The notes below the pieces were generated by a model, which saw only the letters and a program-made list of their open reading frames with translations, was not told where the DNA came from and did not search any database. Positions 28,883 through 37,413 of a stretch of DNA of 64,000 nt are shown here, one piece after another (within the stretch, counting starts at the first letter, position 1; the number at the start of each line of letters is the position of its first letter). Location: NCBI GenBank assembly GCA_034722055.1, contig JAYENL010000242.1, forward strand, positions 1-64,000, read 5' to 3'. The translations under genes were made by a program, and so were the position numbers. The stretch is from Armatimonadota bacterium (GTDB taxonomy: Bacteria; Armatimonadota; Zipacnadia; Zipacnadales; UBA5352).

Positions 28883-29401
28883 CTACCAGCTCTCGCGGTG
28901 CACGGCGTCCAGGGGCCCCGCGGGCTTCGGCTTGGATTCACCCCGCGGATGCCCCAGACTCACCAGCCCCAGAACTCGAATGTGCTCGGGGATGCCGAGG
29001 AGCTCGCGAACCATCTCCTCGCGCTCGAAGCCGGGGCCCTCTGGGGCCTCAGAGCCGCGGATGCCGATCCAGCACGTGCCCAGGTCCAGGGCTGCGGCCT
29101 GAATCAGCGCGTTCTCAACCGCCGCGCTTGCGTCCTCGATCCACCAGTGCGGCTGCCGCCTGCCATCGGCGCAGAAGACCAGCACCACCGGCGACTGGGC
29201 GCAGAAGCCAGCCCACCGATGCACCTGCGAGAGCCTGGCCCGCCTCTCGTTGTCGGTCACCACCACGATGTGCCACGGCCGCACGTTGTTGGCGGTCGGC
29301 GCCGAGAGCGCGGCCGCCAGGATCTCCTCCAGGTCATCCTCGGACACCGCCTCGTCAGTGTACGATCGCACGCTGCAGCGCTTCCTGATCGCATCGAGCA
29401 T
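28883..29401 (-). CDS. Nitroreductase family protein
   Basis: IRKRCSVRSY, APTANNVRPW, LGTCWIG, LGHP. Confidence 0.9.
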   Translation of the reverse strand: MLDAIRKRCSVRSYTDEAVSEDDLEEILAAALSAPTANNVRPWHIVVVTDNERRARLSQVHRWAGFCAQSPVVLVFCADGRRQPHWWIEDASAAVENALIQAAALDLGTCWIGIRGSEAPEGPGFEREEMVRELLGIPEHIRVLGLVSLGHPRGESKPKPAGPLDAVHRESW

Positions 29402-29450
29402 CTGCGCATCCTCCCTTTCCCTCGCTCGCAATGTCCGTTGCACCCGCCCG

Positions 29451-30146
29451 TCACACCTCCGCCGGCTCCCGGTCGGCCTTGCGGGCGGAGGCGGCACGCC
29501 TCTCCTGCTCAGCCTTCAGCTCCCGGATGGCGTCCTCGATCTGCCGGGTGATCCGCTGCAGATCCTGCTTACCGGGCTTGGGGCCGAACTGCAGGCTGTC
29601 GATGGGCTCACCGAAGCTCACGGCGACCTTCCCGCGGTGGAACCACCTGGAGCCGATGGGCAGCACGTCGTTCGTCCCCGTCAGCGCGCAGGGGATGATG
29701 GGCACCTCCGCGCGGGACGCGGCCAGAGCGGCGCCGAGGTCGAACTCGCCCACCCGCTCGTCCCGGCTCCGCGTGCCCTCCGGGAACATCGTCAGCAGCT
29801 CGCCGGACCTCAGGAGCCTGACGGCTTCCTTGAGCGCCCGCGTGTCGGCCGACCCCCGCTGCACCGGGAAGGCGTAGCACTTGCGGATGATCCAGCCGAA
29901 GACGGGTACGAACAGCTCGCTCTTGGCGAAGTAGTAGGTCCGACGCCTCAGCGCCGAGCCCACGACCGGAGGATCGAGGAAGCTGAGGTGATTGGAGGCG
30001 ATGACCGCCCCATGGTCCTCGGGGACGTTCTCATGCCCCGTCACCCTCCACCCCCCCAGCAGCCGCAGCATCCGCGGCAGTGTCCACTGCACGAAGCGGT
30101 AGTGCGGCCACGTCCAGCTCCGCGGCGGCTCAGGGGTCCTGTTCAT
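29451..30146 (-). CDS. plsC: 1-acyl-sn-glycerol-3-phosphate acyltransferase
   Basis: NHLSFLD (HxxxxD) and FPEGTRS; follows cmk. Confidence 0.9.
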   Translation of the reverse strand: MNRTPEPPRSWTWPHYRFVQWTLPRMLRLLGGWRVTGHENVPEDHGAVIASNHLSFLDPPVVGSALRRRTYYFAKSELFVPVFGWIIRKCYAFPVQRGSADTRALKEAVRLLRSGELLTMFPEGTRSRDERVGEFDLGAALAASRAEVPIIPCALTGTNDVLPIGSRWFHRGKVAVSFGEPIDSLQFGPKPGKQDLQRITRQIEDAIRELKAEQERRAASARKADREPAEV

Positions 30147-30834
30147 CGCGCTCCTCCAGCCGCCCGTCCAGCAGCTCCATCACGCGGTCAACGACCTGCT
30201 CCACGCTCAGCGGATCGGTGTCGATCTCCACGGCGTCCTCGGCCCTGCACAGAGGGGCGACGGCTCTGTTGCTGTCGCGCTCGTCGCGCTCTCGTTGGTC
30301 CTCGAGCACCTCCTGGAAGCTCACGTCCTCGCCGCGCTCCCGCAGCTCCTCGTATCGACGCCGGGCGCGCTCCTCGGCTGAGGCCGTGATGAAGACCTTC
30401 AGCAGCGCATCCGGAAAGACCACCGTGCCGATGTCCCGGCCCTCCATCACCACCGGCCGGCGACTCGCCATGCGCCGCTGCGCCTCCACCAGGTGCTCCC
30501 GCACCTGTGGAATGGCTGACACGGGCGAGGACAGGTTGCCGACCTCCGGGGTGCGGACAGCGCGCTCCACGTCCTCACCATTGACGAACAGATGCTGCCC
30601 ATCACCGACCGCGCGGAACTCGAAGCGCAGCCCGCCGGCCAGTTCGCCAATGGCGTCGGCGTCCCGTTCCGCGTCGAGGCTCCGGCGCATGGCCATCAGC
30701 GCCACCGCGCGGTACATGGCGCCGGTGTCAATGTAGGTGTAGCCGGCGCGCTTGGCCACCGCGCGGGCCACGGTGCTCTTCCCCGCGCCGGCGGGGCCAT
30801 CAATCGCCACCATGCAGCCGGCCTGCTCGCCCAT
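30130..30834 (-). CDS. cmk: Cytidylate kinase
   Basis: AIDGPAGAGKST, DTGAMYR, MEGRDIGTVVFPDA. Confidence 0.97.
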   Translation of the reverse strand: MGEQAGCMVAIDGPAGAGKSTVARAVAKRAGYTYIDTGAMYRAVALMAMRRSLDAERDADAIGELAGGLRFEFRAVGDGQHLFVNGEDVERAVRTPEVGNLSSPVSAIPQVREHLVEAQRRMASRRPVVMEGRDIGTVVFPDALLKVFITASAEERARRRYEELRERGEDVSFQEVLEDQRERDERDSNRAVAPLCRAEDAVEIDTDPLSVEQVVDRVMELLDGRLEERDEQDP

Positions 30835-30882
30835 CGCCCGGCCCTTCCTCTCCCACTACGCTGCTGGTCTAATCCGTGATCC

Positions 30883-30972
30883 GGTCGGGCAGGATGCCCG
30901 ACCTACGCGAAGAGGACTGATGACCGTGAGTCGGTCGGCAGCGTTAAGTAGTGCAGGCGCCCCCGCCTGCAC
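30883..30972. repeat. Divergent pair of GTAG-type REP palindromes
   Basis: Minus strand GTAGGTCGGGCATCCTGCCCGACC (30906-30883); plus strand GTAGTGCAGGCGCCCCCGCCTGCAC (30948-30972). Confidence 0.75.
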
Positions 30973-31047
30973 GCCGTTTGGGCCCCTCGCCAGATACCTG
31001 CCCTGGGCCGGGGTGGAAGCTTCGGCCCGTTCGCTTCGCTCACAGGC

Positions 31048-31082
31048 CTCACCGGGCGTTGCACGCCCGGCGGCCCCTCCAC
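31048..31082 (-). repeat. GTGGAGGGGCCGC-family repeat with hairpin; homolog at 58425-58459
   Basis: GTGGAGGGGCCGCCGGGCGTGCAACGCCCGGTGAG. Confidence 0.7.
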
Positions 31083-31195
31083 CGAGCTCCTGCGTACCCT
31101 TACAACTACCGGACCCGCAGACAGCACTCGTCGTCAATACCTCAGAACTTGCACAGTGACCACTACCTCGTGCAGCCGCGCAGCTCGACCATCAT

Positions 31196-32503
31196 CTACT
31201 CTTCCTCTTCGACGCACTCGGCCCCCAGCTCCTGCATCGCGCGAGTGAAGCCGGGGAACGAGGTGGCGATGCACTCCGCGCGCTCGACGATCGTCTCCCC
31301 CTCCGCGACGAGCCCCGCCACCGCCGCGGACATGGCCACCCGATGGTCGCCCCGACTGTCCACGGTCGCCCCCCTCAGCGGCGTCGGCCCGGTAATCTCC
31401 AGGCCGTCCTCTCGCTCGGTGATATCGGCCGCCATGGCGGACAGCACCTCGGCCATCGCCGCGAGCCGATCGCTCTCCTTCACGCGCAGCTCCTGGGCGT
31501 CGCTGATGACCGTCGTCCCCTCGGCCTGGGTGGCGGCCACCGCCAGGACGGGCACCTCGTCGATCATCCGCGGGATCAGCTCGCCACCCGCCTCAGTGGC
31601 CGCCAGGTGGCTCGAACGCGCCAGGATGTTGCCCACCGGCTCACAGGCCACCTGTTGCCGATCCCCGACCTCAAGGTCGGCACCCATCGCCTCCAGGACC
31701 TCCAGCAGCCCCGTCCGCCTGGGATTGAGCAGGGTCTCCTCGGCAAGCACCTCACTGTCCTGCGTGAGCAGCGCCGCCACCAAAACGAAGGCGGTGGAGG
31801 AGAGGTCCGCCGGCACCTGCATCGACTGCGCCTGCAGCTCCCGACCCGGCCGCAGCGTGACGGTCAGGTCCTCGACCTCGATGTCGGCACCCATGGCCCG
31901 GAGCATCCGCTCGGTGTGATCGCGCGACGGCCCGGGCTCGATGACTCTCGTCTCGCCCACCGCCTGCAGGCCCGCCAGCAGGATGGCTGACTTGACCTGC
32001 GCGCTGGCCATCGGCGTGTGATACTCGATGCCACCCAGGTCGCCGCCCCGGACGGTGACCGGCGGCAGGCATCGCTCTCCCCGGCCCTGCACGCGCCCCC
32101 CCATCAGCTCCAGGGGCCTCGCGATGCGGTCCATGGGCCGCTGGGAGAGAGACTCATCGCCGGCCAAGGTGACCTCGAAGGGGCGGCCGGCCACCAGCCC
32201 CATCATCAGCCGCATCCCGGTGGCGGAGTTGCCCATCTCCAGCGGCTGGTCGGGCTCTTGAAGGCCGTCGAGGCCTGCGCCGTGGACCTCCAGCGTCTCG
32301 GTGCCGATGGGCTCGATGTGCACGCCCATCGCCCGGAGGGCCTCGGCGGTGCGCAGGCAGTCATCGCACTCGAGAAAGCCCTCGATGCGAGCGATGCCCG
32401 TGGCAATGGAGGAGAGCATCGCCGCCCGGTGAGAGATGGACTTGTCGCCTGGCGGCCGTATTGACCCTGAGAGTCGCTCGCAAGGCCGCACTCGCAGCCT
32501 CAT
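31196..32503 (-). CDS. aroA: 3-phosphoshikimate 1-carboxyvinyltransferase (EPSP synthase)
   Basis: PGDKSISHRA, SAQVKSA, RDHTERML, ELRVKESDR, DHRVAM. Confidence 0.97.
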   Translation of the reverse strand: MRLRVRPCERLSGSIRPPGDKSISHRAAMLSSIATGIARIEGFLECDDCLRTAEALRAMGVHIEPIGTETLEVHGAGLDGLQEPDQPLEMGNSATGMRLMMGLVAGRPFEVTLAGDESLSQRPMDRIARPLELMGGRVQGRGERCLPPVTVRGGDLGGIEYHTPMASAQVKSAILLAGLQAVGETRVIEPGPSRDHTERMLRAMGADIEVEDLTVTLRPGRELQAQSMQVPADLSSTAFVLVAALLTQDSEVLAEETLLNPRRTGLLEVLEAMGADLEVGDRQQVACEPVGNILARSSHLAATEAGGELIPRMIDEVPVLAVAATQAEGTTVISDAQELRVKESDRLAAMAEVLSAMAADITEREDGLEITGPTPLRGATVDSRGDHRVAMSAAVAGLVAEGETIVERAECIATSFPGFTRAMQELGAECVEEEE

Positions 32504-33360
32504 GTCTCAGCCATCCTCTCTCGCCGCCGGCGAGCCTCCGCCAGCAGCGCCGTCAGCGCATCCTCATCCCCGGCGCGCAGCGCCTCCCGGTACCGCTCCG
32601 CCTCCTCAAGGAGCTCATCCAGCGCCGCCAGCACCTCGTCGGCGTTCGTCAGCAGGATCTCCCGCCACACCTCCACCGGGCCGGCAGCGATGCGCGTCGT
32701 ATCCCGCAGCCCGCCGCCCACGAAGGCATGGTCCTCGGCGGCATCGCCCAGCGCCCCGCACAGAGCCGCCGCAACCAGGTGCGGCAGATGGCTGGTGCGG
32801 GCGACGATGCGGTCGTGCGTCTCCGCGTCAACGACCACTGGCCGGGCCCCCAGGGCCTCGACGATATCGCGCATGCGTGTGAGGGCCGCCTCGCCGCCTG
32901 GCTGCGGCGTGAGCAGCCAGGCGCTGCCCCGGAAGAGGTCAGCGCGAGCAGCGGCGATGCCGGCTCGCTCCGAGCCGGCCATGGGGTGGCCGCCCACGAA
33001 GTCAACGCCGTCGGGCAGCCCGCGAGCGGCCTCCATGATCCGCCGCTTGGTGCTGCCGGCGTCCGTCACCAGGCAGCCCTCGGCCACCGCAGGTCCGATG
33101 GCGTTGATGATCTCGGGGATGGCCGCCACCGGGGTGGCGATGAACACCATCTCGGCCTCGCGCACCGCCTCGACGGGATCACGCGTGGTGGCATCCGCGG
33201 CCCCGCAAACCACGGCCTCCCGGAGCGTCTCCGCTGAGCGCGCCACGCCCACGACCTCGCGCAGGATCCCCGCCTCTCGACCCGCCAGCGCAAAGGAGCC
33301 GCCGATCAGCCCGATGCCGATGACAGCCGTGCGGCTGAAGCGCGTGCCCTCCACGGCCAT
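32500..33360 (-). CDS. tyrA: Prephenate dehydrogenase
   Basis: GIGLIGGS, TDAGSTK, GGHPMAGSE, SHLPH, GLRDTTRIA. Confidence 0.95.
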   Translation of the reverse strand: MAVEGTRFSRTAVIGIGLIGGSFALAGREAGILREVVGVARSAETLREAVVCGAADATTRDPVEAVREAEMVFIATPVAAIPEIINAIGPAVAEGCLVTDAGSTKRRIMEAARGLPDGVDFVGGHPMAGSERAGIAAARADLFRGSAWLLTPQPGGEAALTRMRDIVEALGARPVVVDAETHDRIVARTSHLPHLVAAALCGALGDAAEDHAFVGGGLRDTTRIAAGPVEVWREILLTNADEVLAALDELLEEAERYREALRAGDEDALTALLAEARRRRERMAET

Positions 33361-33373
33361 CGGCTCGCCTCCC

Positions 33374-34396
33374 TCATATCTCGCGCCCGACCGCCTCCGC
33401 GACCGTCCGGATCTGCTTCATCAGATCCGCGAACCCCGCCGGGGTCAGGGACTGCGGACCATCGCTGAGAGCCTGATCCGGCCGCGGATGCACCTCCACG
33501 AGCAGCCCGTCGGCGCCGGCCGCCACCGCCGCCAGGGCCATCTGCGGCACCAGGGAGCTGACGCCCACAGCGTGGCTGGGGTCAGCCAGGATGGGCAGGA
33601 AGGTCTCCCGCCGCGCCGCCGCCATCCCCCCCAGGTCCAGGGTGAAGCGCGTGGACGTCTCGAAGGTGCGGATGCCGCGCTCGCAGAGGATGATGTCCAG
33701 CGTCCCCGCGGCGGCGATGTACTCGCAGGCCTTCAGCCACTCCTCGACGGTGGACGAGAAGCCGCGCTTGAGCATCACCGGCCTCCCGGAGCGGCCGGCC
33801 TCCTTCAGCAGGTCGTAGTTCTGCATGTTCCGAGCACCGATCTGCAGGCAGTCGGCCAGCTCCGCCACCCGCTCCACCTGCCGCACGTCCATGACCTCGG
33901 TGACCACCGGCAGCCCGGTCTCCTCCCGGGCCTCGGCCAGCAACTCCAGTCCCTCCGGGCCCAGCCCCTGGAAGCTGTAGGGCGACGTCCGCGGTTTGAA
34001 GGCGCCGCCGCGCAGCGCGGCGGCGCCGGCCTCCGCCACGGCCCGGGCGGTCTGCATGACCTGCTCCCGGCTCTCCACCGAGCAGGGCCCGGCGATCACA
34101 CCCAGGTGTCCCGCCCCGATGCGCCTGTCGCCGAGCATCACCGACGAGGGCCTCGGGTTGTGCTCCCGGCTGATGAGCTTGTAGGGCTTGAGAACCGGCA
34201 CCACGCGCTCGACGCCCGGCAGCACCGAGAACTGGCCCGCCACGACCTCCTTCTCGTGGTCCGGCGCGCCGATGGCGCCGATGATGGTGCGCTCCTCGCC
34301 CCGGGAGATATGGTGGCCGTAGCCACGCTCCGCCAGGCGCTTCACGACCTGCTCCACGTCCTCATCAGTGCTGTCTCGACGCATGACTACGATCAT
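33374..34396 (-). CDS. aroF: DAHP synthase (type I-beta, N-terminal regulatory domain)
   Basis: [44 protein letters not shown]. Confidence 0.96.
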
Positions 34397-34416
34397 GGTC
34401 GCTCAACTGCCCCTCG

Positions 34417-35529
34417 TCACTGCTCGGGGCGCTCCGCCAGCACCTGGCGCAGCGCCGCGATGAAGGTCTCGTTCTGCTCCGGCGTGCCGATGGTCACCCG
34501 GATCCACTCCGGGAAGCCGAAGATCTCGCCGGTGCGCACCGTCACACCGTGGCGCATCAGGGCGTCGAAGCACGCCACGCTGTCCATGCCAACCTCAACG
34601 AAGATGAAGTTCGCCTGCGTCGGGATATACTCGAGCCCCATCTTGTCGAACTGCCCGTAGAGGTACTGCTTGCCGGCGCGGTTGTTCGCCACGCTCCTGG
34701 GCACCTGGTCTGGGTCGCGGAGGCTGGCCAGCGCCGCTGTCTGGGCCACCGACGCGACATTGAAGGGCTCCCGCACCTGCTTGAGCGCGCTGGCGATGTC
34801 CACCGGCGCGATGCCGTAGCCGATGCGCAGGCCGGCCAGGGCGAAGGCCTTCGAGAAGGTGCGCAGCACCGCGCACCGGGCGCCCTCCCGCACGTGCTGC
34901 AGTGTGTCCGGATAGGCCGGGTCATCGACGTACTCGAAGTAGGCCTCATCGAAGACCACGATGCAGGTGTCCGGCACGCGGTCCATAAAGGCCGCAACCT
35001 CATCGGCGGTCACGATGGTGCCGAGCGGGTTGTAGGGGTTGGAGATGAACACCAGCTTCGTGCGCTCGGTCACCGCCTCGGCCATGGCATCGAGATCGTG
35101 TCGGAAGTCCCGAGCAGGCACCACAACCTCCTCGGCGGCCATCAGCCGGGCGGTGTAGGGGTAGATGGCGAAGGCCGGGTCGGAGAAGACCAGGTTGTCG
35201 CCGGGATCGACGAAGGCCAGCCCCAGGTAGTGCAGAATCTCGTCCGAGCCGCGGCCCACGACGATGGTGTCCGGGTCCACGTCCAGCATCTCCGCCAGCG
35301 CCTCCGTCAGCTCCACACACTGCGGGTCGGGGTAGGAGAGCACCTCCGAGGCCGCATCCTGCATTGCCTGCACAGCCAGCGGCGAGGGCCCGAGCGGGTT
35401 CTCATTGGACGCCAGCTTGGTGACCCTCTCGATGCCCAGCTCCGCCATGACCTCCGCGGAGGACTTGCCCGGGGAGTAGGGCACGATGCGCTTGACGGTC
35501 TCGCGGATCAGCTCGTCTGCCTCGGCCAC
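34417..35529 (-). CDS. hisC: Histidinol-phosphate/aromatic aminotransferase
   Basis: KLASNENPLG, NPYNPLG, DEAY, RTFSKAFALAGLRIGY. Confidence 0.95.
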   Translation of the reverse strand: MAEADELIRETVKRIVPYSPGKSSAEVMAELGIERVTKLASNENPLGPSPLAVQAMQDAASEVLSYPDPQCVELTEALAEMLDVDPDTIVVGRGSDEILHYLGLAFVDPGDNLVFSDPAFAIYPYTARLMAAEEVVVPARDFRHDLDAMAEAVTERTKLVFISNPYNPLGTIVTADEVAAFMDRVPDTCIVVFDEAYFEYVDDPAYPDTLQHVREGARCAVLRTFSKAFALAGLRIGYGIAPVDIASALKQVREPFNVASVAQTAALASLRDPDQVPRSVANNRAGKQYLYGQFDKMGLEYIPTQANFIFVEVGMDSVACFDALMRHGVTVRTGEIFGFPEWIRVTIGTPEQNETFIAALRQVLAERPEQ

Positions 35530-35557
35530 GATCGGTCCCTCCTGCGCTATCGGGAGC

Positions 35558-36538
35558 TCACTCGGAGCTCTGGCTGACGATCTCGCTGAGCAGTCGGCTG
35601 ACGGAGCGGTCCTCGTGAATGCAGCGCAGCGCCTCCGCCAGCAGCGGCGCCACGGAGACCACCGTCACGTTGTCAGGCGCCTCAGGGCGCGTGGGGATGG
35701 TGTCGGTGGTGTAGAGCGTCCGGATGTCGGACTTGCCGATCAGCTCCGGGGCGTCTCCACACATGATGGCGTGCGTCACGCACGCGTTGACCTCGGTGGC
35801 GCCCGCCTCCATGACCTCTGAGGCTGCGTTGACGATGGTGCTGCCGCTGAAGATGAAGTCATCCACCAGCAGCGCGCGCATGCCGTCGAGGTCACCGACG
35901 CTCTCGACGGTCCGCGCCACCTCCACGTCCTCGTTTGGATGGCGTTTGAAGACAACCGCAATGTGGCAGCCCAGGCGCTGTGCAATCTCATCGGCCCGAT
36001 CCACGGCCCCGGCGTCGGGCGCCACGATGATGGTATTGGGGCCGGTCAGGCCCTCTCTGCGGAACACGTTGAGAAACACCGGCAGGTGCGGCAGGTGGTC
36101 TACGGGGATGTCGAAGAAGCCCTGGATGGCGCCCTCGTGCAGGTCCATGGTCACGATGCGATCCGCGCCGGCGGCCACAGTCAGGTCCGCCACCACCCGG
36201 GCGGAGATGGGCTCCCGGCCCCGGAACTTGCGCTCCTGCTTGGAGTACGGATACCAGGGGACGACGGCGGTGATGCGGCCCGCCGACGCCCGCTTGGCGG
36301 CGTCGATCATCAGCCACAGCTCCACCAGCCGGTCGCTGACCTGGTCGGGGAAGGACTGGAAGATGAAGACGTCCTTCCCGCGCACGTTCTCCAGAAGCTG
36401 AATGCGGATCTCGTCGTTGGAGAACTTCGAGACGATGGCCTCCGAGACCCGAGTGCCCAGCGCCTCGGCCACATCGCTCGAAAGCTGCACACTCCCGTTG
36501 CCCGTGAATATGCTCATGTCATCGAAAGCCGGACTCAT
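35558..36538 (-). CDS. prs: Ribose-phosphate pyrophosphokinase (some divergent motifs)
   Basis: FSNDEI, ENVRGKDV, DAAKRASAGRITAVVP, DLH..AIQGFFDIPVD, APDAG, SVAPLLAEA. Confidence 0.92.
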   Translation of the reverse strand: MSPAFDDMSIFTGNGSVQLSSDVAEALGTRVSEAIVSKFSNDEIRIQLLENVRGKDVFIFQSFPDQVSDRLVELWLMIDAAKRASAGRITAVVPWYPYSKQERKFRGREPISARVVADLTVAAGADRIVTMDLHEGAIQGFFDIPVDHLPHLPVFLNVFRREGLTGPNTIIVAPDAGAVDRADEIAQRLGCHIAVVFKRHPNEDVEVARTVESVGDLDGMRALLVDDFIFSGSTIVNAASEVMEAGATEVNACVTHAIMCGDAPELIGKSDIRTLYTTDTIPTRPEAPDNVTVVSVAPLLAEALRCIHEDRSVSRLLSEIVSQSSE

Positions 36539-36590
36539 GCCTGTGGACTCCCGTTCATGGATGATCTCGCCGACGGCCGGCCCCCTGACA

Positions 36591-36622
36591 GAAAAAACGC
36601 CGCGGGTTGGCGCCGCGGCGTT
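36591..36622 (-). terminator. Intrinsic terminator in the prs leader (attenuator segments 3:4)
   Basis: AACGCCGCGG-CGCCAAC-CCGCGGCGTT then TTTTCT on minus strand, about 55 nt upstream of the prs ATG. Confidence 0.85.
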
Positions 36623-36646
36623 GGGCTCTCCTGGGCTCGTGCAGTG

Positions 36647-36721
36647 CTAGCAGGACTCCCTCCGCCGCGGGTCAGACCCGTGGTAATAATGATGGCAGCG
36701 ACTGACTTGGTGGATGGCCAT
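36647..36721 (-). CDS. Putative His/Tyr-rich attenuator leader peptide MAIHQVSRCHHYYHGSDPRRRESC (alternative ATG at 36727)
   Basis: GGGGA SD 7 nt before ATG 36721; CAT CAT TAT TAC CAC run; TAG 24 nt before the terminator. Confidence 0.72.
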   Translation of the reverse strand: MAIHQVSRCHHYYHGSDPRRRESC

Positions 36722-36763
36722 CGCCATATCCCCGCGACGCAGGAGTGCAGCACGTTTGACGGT

Positions 36764-36792
36764 AAACTAACATAGCCCAGAGGCGCTGTCAA
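36764..36792 (-). promoter_or_regulatory. sigma70-type promoter for the leader and prs operon
   Basis: TTGACA-N17-TAGTTT with extended -10 TG. Confidence 0.75.
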
Positions 36793-36910
36793 GGCGCCGT
36801 TCGGCGGCAAGCGGACACGCCGAACCGGGGAGTCCGACGGCGCCAGGACGTGCCGGCGGCTCTGAGCCGTGCGGCGTTCGCAGCCCGCCGGTGAGGATCG
36901 AGACTCACAC

Positions 36911-37270
36911 TCACTCCCGCCGCCGGCTGATCTCCACCTCGGCGTGGTCGATGAGCCCGCCCAGCGGGGCGCTCATCTTCCGCACCCGGACCGTGACCTC
37001 CTCCACGGGGAACTCAGCGAGGACCGCCTCGGCAATGTGGTGGGCGAAGGCCTCCAGGAGCCGGAAACGACTCTCCTCCTGAACGCGCGCCACGAGGTCG
37101 TACACAGCCTTATAGTCAACGGTGTCGGCCACGCTGTCGCTCACGCCGGCAGAGTGCAGGTCCAGACCCAGCTCCACATCCACGTGGAAGCGGCCACCGA
37201 GGTCCCGCTCGGACGCATCCACCCCGTGGTAGCCGTAGAAGCGCATGTTGTGAATGCGGATGATGTCCAT
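36911..37270 (-). CDS. folB: Dihydroneopterin aldolase
   Basis: FYGYHGV..SE, DTVDY, LLEA, VRVRK. Confidence 0.95.
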   Translation of the reverse strand: MDIIRIHNMRFYGYHGVDASERDLGGRFHVDVELGLDLHSAGVSDSVADTVDYKAVYDLVARVQEESRFRLLEAFAHHIAEAVLAEFPVEEVTVRVRKMSAPLGGLIDHAEVEISRRRE

Positions 37271-37413
37271 GGCGTCAGCACAGGCGACAAGCTGCAGGCT
37301 AACAGCAAACGAAGGGGGAGGAGAGCCACGGGGCACAGACCGTCACGCGGACGCCGCAGGGGAGACGTGTGGGCTTCACGGCGCAGCTCATGACCGGAGA
37401 TTGGCGAACCGGC

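Follow-up and report, generated by a model that had tools for sequence, protein, structure and literature searches.

The 64,000-nucleotide (nt) stretch of DNA analyzed here, which we call the window, comes from an Armatimonadota bacterium (assembly GCA_034722055.1, contig JAYENL010000242.1, positions 1-64,000; GTDB lineage Zipacnadia; Zipacnadales; UBA5352), and our subject is a leader on its minus strand (36591-36792) that precedes the biosynthetic operon prs-hisC-aroF-tyrA-aroA. Judged by its conservation, this leader is a real cis-regulatory element, and it is probably a leader-peptide transcription attenuator: stalling of the ribosome at histidine (His) or tyrosine (Tyr) codons of a short open reading frame (ORF) is predicted to raise read-through into the operon. 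We infer from the sequence that a single leader senses both amino acids; where transcription would terminate, and how His and Tyr would each affect it, are likewise predictions.

A search of 41 related genomes placed prs orthologues, 66-88% identical, in the window's genome and in all 17 other genomes of its family, which together represent 8 genera. The same leader lies ahead of the prs orthologue in 18/18 of these family genomes, and since the whole arrangement recurs in every one of them, it is more than chance. The elements follow one another in a fixed order throughout: the ORF, CCGCGGCGGAGGGAG, the stop codon, a spacer that measures 25-29 nt although its sequence varies, CGCCGCGG, a loop, CCGCGGCG and a T-rich tail. 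The ORF extends over 23-28 codons from ATG to stop in all 18 leaders, and the stop falls in one alignment column, where it is written TAG in 15 leaders, TGA in 2 and TAA in 1. A second in-frame ATG in the window, at 36727, becomes ATA in a relative from the same genus, so that the ATG at 36721 is taken as the conserved start. Furthermore, GGAG or GGGG stands 6-8 nt ahead of the start codon in 16/18 leaders. From these signs (a Shine-Dalgarno-like site, an ATG, and a stop that is kept as TAG, TGA or TAA) we infer that the ORF is translated.

The key observation concerns the codons of this ORF. In the region between the start codon and an element that we name segment 2 (315 codons, pooled from the 18 leaders), His accounts for 59 codons (18.7%) and Tyr for 54 (17.1%), that is, ~36% together, against a background of ~3.6% His and ~2.1% Tyr in the long ORFs of the window's genome. 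Read in the two alternative frames, these stretches yield only 6/297 and 8/297 codons for either amino acid. Every leader contains at least two His and at least two Tyr codons, all in the same frame and just upstream of the antiterminator segment, while their arrangement varies by genus: HHYYH, YHYRH, HHHYY, YYYGYHSHH, HYRHYAYH, HDHYGCYYH, HGHYYAYYHHH and YYYPHFH. By these counts, the kept feature is a codon composition in one frame, and not an RNA or peptide sequence, which is the signature expected of regulatory codons. The leaders also favor the rarer, U-ending codons: CAT makes up 26/59 (44%) of their His codons versus 28% in the genome, and TAT 21/54 (39%) of their Tyr codons versus 16%. 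An earlier note on this DNA, made from the window's sequence alone (hereafter, the original prediction), had proposed the attenuator and had named the loss of His and Tyr codons from orthologous leaders as grounds for rejecting it; both are kept in 18/18 leaders across the 8 genera. The leader ORF, its Shine-Dalgarno site and the His/Tyr run were also located on the minus strand exactly where that prediction had put them.

The codon mix fits the cargo of the operon, with hisC and prs serving His, and aroF, aroA and tyrA serving Tyr. These gene assignments, which had likewise been made from the sequence, are borne out by Pfam and NCBIfam. The genes are closely packed: 28 nt separate prs from hisC, 20 nt hisC from aroF, and 13 nt aroF from tyrA, whereas the end of tyrA shares 4 nt with aroA. 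As judged by tblastn, hisC, tyrA and aroA are single-copy in the genome (the next-best matches to hisC are at most 29% identical), prs has a paralogue that is 40% identical (C112:3169-4101), and aroF has one, 48% identical, on contig C186, upstream of which no obvious leader was seen by eye. Because the operon holds the only hisC of the genome together with a gene that supplies phosphoribosyl pyrophosphate (PRPP), the His codons have a concrete target. HisC-type enzymes can also act as aromatic aminotransferases.

Bearing in mind that codons for two amino acids are present, one may ask if both are read. We think it unlikely that the attenuator senses only one of the two, with the codons for the other being passengers or serving to slow the ribosome. 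There is a precedent for such an arrangement: the aroR leader of Corynebacterium glutamicum, which lies before aroF and encodes Phe-Tyr-Phe, is reported in the review PMC11802643, citing Neshat et al. 2014, to respond to phenylalanine (Phe) but to be unaffected by the supply of Tyr. In addition, three of our leaders (L005, L008 and L018) carry only two codons of one kind. Like the window's leader, aroR places a leader peptide with a Tyr codon before a DAHP (3-deoxy-D-arabinoheptulosonate 7-phosphate) synthase operon; unlike it, aroR lacks His codons, and neither hisC nor prs is among the genes that it precedes. What speaks for the sensing of both amino acids is that the two codon types persist together in all 18 leaders while their order is reshuffled, that they are interleaved within the same 12-40 nt before segment 2, and that the operon has dedicated genes for both pathways.

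The RNA elements that would turn stalling into a transcriptional decision are also conserved. Segment 2, which lies inside the ORF, is identical to segment 4, the 3' arm of the terminator, and both are complementary to segment 3, the terminator's 5' arm; this three-segment logic, as originally proposed, is kept in 18/18 leaders. The same is true of the terminator stem and of at least 4 T among the 8 nt that follow it; the terminator loop ranges from 5 to 10 nt. Spacing is constrained too: the start of segment 2 is 21 nt from the stop codon in 17/18 leaders, and the last His codon is 12 nt before segment 2 in 13/18. That three copies of one 8-mer are invariant while loops and spacers drift would fit a three-way pairing constraint, but is not proof of it. 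Scanning for terminators in the window returned a single site within 800 nt (36622-36596; a GC stem of 10 pairs and a T-rich tail), compared with a mean of 0.2 in shuffled sequences, and no further terminator-like site was found in a scan of 29300-36600. The predicted 10-base-pair terminator with its U-tract, and the identity of segment 2 to its 3' arm, are thus present at the coordinates first given for them.

We hypothesize that these elements operate as follows. When charged tRNA-His and tRNA-Tyr are both plentiful, the ribosome would reach the stop codon, which lies 21 nt downstream of where segment 2 begins, and would mask that segment; segments 3 and 4 would then fold together, and RNA polymerase would terminate at the T tract. 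If either tRNA were poorly charged, the ribosome would stall 12-40 nt upstream of segment 2, where it would cover the local partner of that segment. Segment 2 would be left free to pair with segment 3 as soon as the latter is made: no terminator would form, and the operon would be transcribed. Without translation, segment 2 would likely be held in a long-range helix with the 5' untranslated region (UTR), with the Shine-Dalgarno site partly covered, and the default outcome would be termination.

Each of the 18 leaders was also folded with a 30-nt ribosome footprint forced single-stranded. With the footprint at the stop codon, the 2:3 helix forms in 0/18. When the footprint is placed over a His or Tyr codon instead, and the RNA is cut off just behind segment 3, this helix forms at 87/113 stall positions, in 17/18 leaders. 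In the naked full-length leader, the terminator is part of the minimum free energy (MFE) structure in 16/18. The energies for the window are -18.2 kcal/mol for the terminator hairpin, -31.7 kcal/mol for the region spanning segments 2 and 3 when folded into the 2:3 helix, -10.1 kcal/mol for the local 1:2 hairpin, and -33.5 kcal/mol for the long-range duplex that joins the 5' UTR to segment 2 and the stop region.

This long-range duplex, which we name P1, merits further comment. The 5' UTR of the 18 leaders shares CACUCCC...GCGGAGA, and in the RNAalifold consensus the partner of segment 2 is CGCGG, immediately 5' to the Shine-Dalgarno site. When the two strands are folded as a duplex, the 5' UTR and the region from segment 2 to the stop form a helix of three parts in 18/18 leaders, with energies of -19.3 to -38.7 kcal/mol. 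On the alignment, which is poor for the three most distant leaders, P1 plus the terminator has 81.3% of cells paired and 13 double-changed cells; shuffles give 5.9 +/- 2.0 such cells, and 2/500 of them attain 13. In these models, the long-range pairing of P1 appears to be a better-supported candidate for the anti-antiterminator than the local hairpin.

Several observations weigh against an attenuator, or against parts of the scheme. The 18 genomes are mutual kin, so that every count drawn from them overstates independence. An open frame is non-discriminating in DNA this rich in GC, where 9/18 and 14/18 leaders are open in the two alternative frames as well (the ORFs in those frames end early in the relatives), and the window's own Shine-Dalgarno site (GGGGA) is weak. 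By analogy, aroR shows that the presence of a codon does not prove sensing. A strict scan of the window's genome (113 ORF/terminator pairs) found no other attenuator of this kind among the top-scoring pairs inspected. Stem covariation, to which the original prediction had looked, gives a divided answer: the 2:3 helix is paired in 94.4% of cells, but the cores of the 2:3 and 3:4 helices are invariant, so that covariation in the terminator and antiterminator gives no evidence either way. The protector hairpin of that prediction (CCACGGGT/ACCCGCGG) is present; however, only 7 of its 8 positions pair, the eighth being an A.C mismatch that recurs in 14/18 leaders, and 70.8% of its cells are paired in the relatives. 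The covariation of P1 is only modest, and the partner in the anti-antiterminator is ambiguous between this local hairpin and P1. Finally, naked RNA that is truncated after segment 3 already has the 2:3 helix as its MFE structure in 15/18 leaders, and once the RNA is full-length, the terminator prevails at 96/113 positions of a stalled ribosome, as compared with 17/113 for 2:3. Thermodynamics alone therefore give no switch, and the switch must be kinetic, that is, decided before segment 4 is made. Classical attenuators are also understood as kinetic.

Some of these points would suit a protein- or ligand-operated switch, be it a TRAP- or HutP-like factor that reads YAY triplets or a riboswitch, the ORF being incidental. 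Not only are the other frames commonly open, and the helix cores without covariation; UAC and CAU triplets also recur at multiples of 3 nt. Yet the spacing of these triplets differs by genus (they are adjacent in the window, and spaced elsewhere), the enrichment of His and Tyr is frame-specific, and the conserved Shine-Dalgarno site, ATG, and TAG, TGA or TAA stop 21 nt after segment 2 point to translation. Furthermore, a cmscan of 36000-37400 against Rfam, at E values up to 10, returned only a chance microRNA match inside prs: there was no His_leader (RF00514) and no T-box. We consider this type of switch very improbable.

His and Tyr codons have another property in common, in that both are read by tRNAs with queuosine at position 34. 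The leader might then report the queuosine status of the tRNAs that read NAY codons, and not amino-acid supply. TGT is encoded in the genome, and, as noted above, the leaders overuse the U-ending codons CAT and TAT. We nevertheless give this idea scarcely any credence: codons for Asn (1/315) and Asp (5/315), which make up the remaining queuosine-dependent classes, show no enrichment, and the operon is without queuosine genes, its content matching His and Tyr synthesis instead.

The leader has a promoter of its own, with a -35/-10 spacer of 17 nt and a predicted transcript start near 36758. The hexamers TTGACA and TAGTTT had been correctly located by the original prediction, which missed the TG of an extended -10 element. 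A consensus promoter scan did not call this promoter, because its -10 matches the consensus at 3 of 6 positions; the case for it is the conservation of TTGACA and TGnTAnnnT in 18/18 relatives, as read from their sequences. The gene folB, on the same strand, ends 119 nt ahead of the -35 hexamer, which might suggest a constitutive terminator that insulates prs from folB, with a chance small ORF upstream, but this is barely tenable: the conserved promoter sits between folB and the terminator, so that the terminator would cut short the very transcript that carries it, all 18 leaders have a second copy of the terminator arm in segment 2, and the frame-specific His/Tyr enrichment and the fixed spacings are conserved.

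Table 1. Positions in the window of the leader elements and of the operon genes that follow them.
Feature	Positions	Strand	Basis or remark
-35 hexamer TTGACA	36787-36792	minus	sequence; TTGACA at the equivalent place in 18/18 relatives
Extended -10 TGT-TAGTTT	36764-36772	minus	TAGTTT 36769-36764, TG 36772-36771; TGnTAnnnT in 18/18
P1 5' strand GUGCUGCACUCC...CGCGG	36732-36754	minus	5' UTR; overlaps start of Shine-Dalgarno site; RNAalifold consensus
Shine-Dalgarno-like GGGGA	36729-36733	minus	7-8 nt before ATG
Leader ORF MAIHQVSRCHHYYHGSDPRRRESC, 24 codons + TAG	36647-36721	minus	ATG 36721, TAG 36649-36647
Additional His codon	36710-36712	minus	sequence
Control codons CAT CAT TAT TAC CAC	36680-36694	minus	sequence
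Segment 1 of the original prediction, CCACGGGU	36676-36683	minus	local partner of segment 2; one A.C mismatch
P1 3' strand: segment 2, GGAGGGAGU, stop-codon region	36643-36671	minus	duplex folding, covariation
Segment 2, antiterminator strand CCGCGGCG	36663-36670	minus	inside ORF; pairs with segment 3
Segment 3, terminator 5' arm CGCCGCGG	36613-36620	minus	common to antiterminator; invariant in 18/18
Segment 4, terminator 3' arm CCGCGGCG + T6 tract	36592-36605	minus	arm 36605-36598
prs, ribose-phosphate diphosphokinase	35558-36538	minus	Pfam, NCBIfam; second paralogue in genome
hisC, histidinol-phosphate aminotransferase	34417-35529	minus	TIGR01141 equivalog, 339.8 bits vs cut-off 276.55
aroF, DAHP synthase + N-terminal ferredoxin-like domain	33374-34396	minus	Pfam, NCBIfam
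tyrA, prephenate/arogenate dehydrogenase	32500-33360	minus	Pfam, NCBIfam
aroA, 5-enolpyruvylshikimate-3-phosphate synthase	31196-32503	minus	Pfam, NCBIfam

The proposed device would work in the manner of the his, trp, thr and ilv attenuators of enterobacteria; the original prediction had recognized the geometry of the first three. Leader-peptide attenuation has been studied mostly in Proteobacteria, and in a few Actinobacteria and Firmicutes. A close parallel is hisL of the Escherichia coli and Salmonella his operons (RF00514): there too, His control codons stand in a short translated ORF, antiterminator and terminator hairpins are alternatives to each other, and biosynthetic genes follow an intrinsic terminator. 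However, the His codons of hisL form one uninterrupted series, and His is the only amino acid that it senses, whereas the leader described here interleaves His with Tyr, precedes a mixed PRPP/His/Tyr operon, has no Rfam match, and occurs in Armatimonadota. Mixed codons do have a counterpart in the enterobacterial leaders thrL (threonine and isoleucine) and ilvL (isoleucine, leucine and valine), in which starvation for any one of the amino acids relieves termination. There, as here, one leader carries codons for more than one amino acid, but thrL and ilvL serve the linked pathways of one operon; the pairing of His with Tyr is brought about in our case by gene content, hisC standing with tyrA. 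In Bacillus subtilis, a hisC-tyrA-aroE cluster is under the control of TRAP. The T-box (His, Tyr) and TRAP systems of Firmicutes thus place the same genes under RNA-level termination control; they differ from the present case in that uncharged tRNA is read directly, or a protein is the sensor, whereas a translated leader is the likely sensor here.

The his attenuation mechanism is described in PMC9413887, which also covers His-only leaders, T-boxes and HisR in Gram-positive bacteria, including a T-box before hisC of Natranaerobius. PMC1262725 attributes the control of Tyr genes at the RNA level to T-boxes, and reports that no His or Tyr attenuators were found in Actinobacteria. The claim in the original prediction that a combination of His and Tyr is undescribed agrees with our full-text search, in which few subscription journals were covered: we found no description of a His plus Tyr leader, and no leader peptide analyzed in Armatimonadota.

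We also asked how widely the leader is distributed. A covariance model (R1), built from the 18 leaders, gives one match per genome in 18/18 family genomes and matches 0/49 genomes from six other families of the order; on a sample of 151 genomes from the phylum, strong scores are seen in family members only. Scanning species-representative genomes with a sequence pattern gave 14 loci, of which ten are leaders of the family, in records that are named Armatimonadota, candidate division WS1 or Candidatus Zipacnadia; the other four (in Solirubrobacteraceae, Opitutus, Gemmatimonadales and Oscillospiraceae) are without the ORF and the T tract, and we dismissed them as chance. A pattern scan of metagenomes matched at least 120 stretches, but none of the 80 loci examined matches R1, and these too were set aside as chance matches in GC-rich sequence. 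Within the window's genome, the other top-scoring ORF/terminator pairs that we inspected read like the 3' ends of genes, and a looser scan for codon runs was dominated by off-frame ORFs. In the family itself, hisC follows prs in 18/18 loci, and aroF comes next in 15/18, these being the loci that reach far enough.

The sister families provide an informative, if unrooted, comparison. We analyzed 12 hisC loci (L204-L215) from two of these families, covering ~1.5 kb upstream of hisC. Here, hisC comes first, behind a promoter-like TTGCCA...TGTGnTAnAAGTA. The 5' UTR is ~30-40 nt in 11/12 loci; the remaining one is longer, and without a His/Tyr run. In none of the 12 loci is hisC preceded by a His/Tyr-rich ORF, and the ~1.5 kb upstream yielded no prs. 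Downstream, aroF follows hisC in 9/12 loci, and tyrA was seen in 5. The prs that was found in the sister families comes after either a tRNA gene or a hairpin leader of an unrelated kind, and hisC does not follow it. These sequences suggest that hisC-aroF-tyrA-aroA is the older operon, to which the leader and the prs paralogue were added in this family alone.

We tentatively extend this comparison into a broader proposal, to which we assign slightly less than even confidence. The family may have placed a His plus Tyr attenuator and a dedicated PRPP synthase paralogue before an ancestral hisC-aroF-tyrA-aroA operon that has a plain promoter in the sister families, and the attenuator may belong to a wider, undescribed class of multivalent His/Tyr leaders that has arisen repeatedly in different phyla because HisC serves both His and aromatic synthesis. 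The multivalent logic of the window's leader would mirror the widespread linkage of hisC with tyrA, and the sister families, where the operon runs without this leader, offer a before-and-after view of how an attenuator and a precursor-supply gene can be added to an existing operon. An attenuator at this position would also extend leader-peptide attenuation to an uncultured, little-studied phylum, and, if it reads both amino acids as proposed, tyrosine would join those that are read by leader peptides. At ~170 nt the leader is compact, and it could possibly serve as a dual amino-acid biosensor part.

Other features of these loci deserve mention. The promoter-like TTGCCAGCAGCGCCGATTTGTGTTACAAGTA found ~30-40 nt before hisC in L204-L215 has a -10 of the TGTGnTA style that is also present in the window's promoter; this shared style suggests an extended -10 that is typical of the lineage. 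Outside the family, the closest prs genes (46-54% identical) are those of L019-L022 in the sister family f7. They are not followed by hisC, and they have a different conserved GC-rich hairpin leader, which has no Rfam match, after a TTGACA...TAGCAT promoter. In other families of the order (L023-L030), the prs found is immediately preceded by a tRNA gene, seemingly the housekeeping arrangement.

In the window, folB lies upstream of the operon, and cmk and plsC lie downstream of it, after a gap of 361 nt. This aroA-cmk spacer (30835-31195, minus strand) contains several GC-rich inverted repeats, such as CCGGGCGUGCAACGCCCGG and GUGCAGGCGGGGGCGCCUGCAC, that may be REP-like (repetitive extragenic palindromes); it is without a T tract, and no terminator was called in it. 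Three ORFs overlap the leader (278 and 82 amino acids on the plus strand, and 91 amino acids on the minus strand), and none has a Pfam match. Elsewhere in the genome there are two full-length copies of hisD (C135:15024-16250 and C321:8283-9500), both above the Pfam cut-off. Inspection by eye only showed no obvious His leader upstream of either copy, and no obvious leader upstream of aroF2 or pheA.

Weak matches to R1 also occur elsewhere in the phylum. Two of these proved to be plain terminators, and were rejected. Two others (E ~1e-4), both from family f28 (L216, G158:C5:305-467; L217, G200:C1:1566691-1566853), are built along similar lines: the stop of the ORF, MPNCAVRLMALVNLITVNYSPRPRGESLL, comes immediately behind a CGCCGCGGCCGAGGGGAG segment, and the ORF is followed by a GGCCGCGGAG/CUCCGGCGGCC hairpin and T6. 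There is no His/Tyr run in either ORF, and the downstream gene encodes a small protein resembling S-adenosylmethionine-dependent methyltransferases; L216 and L217 may represent the same scaffold, reused with a different sensor.

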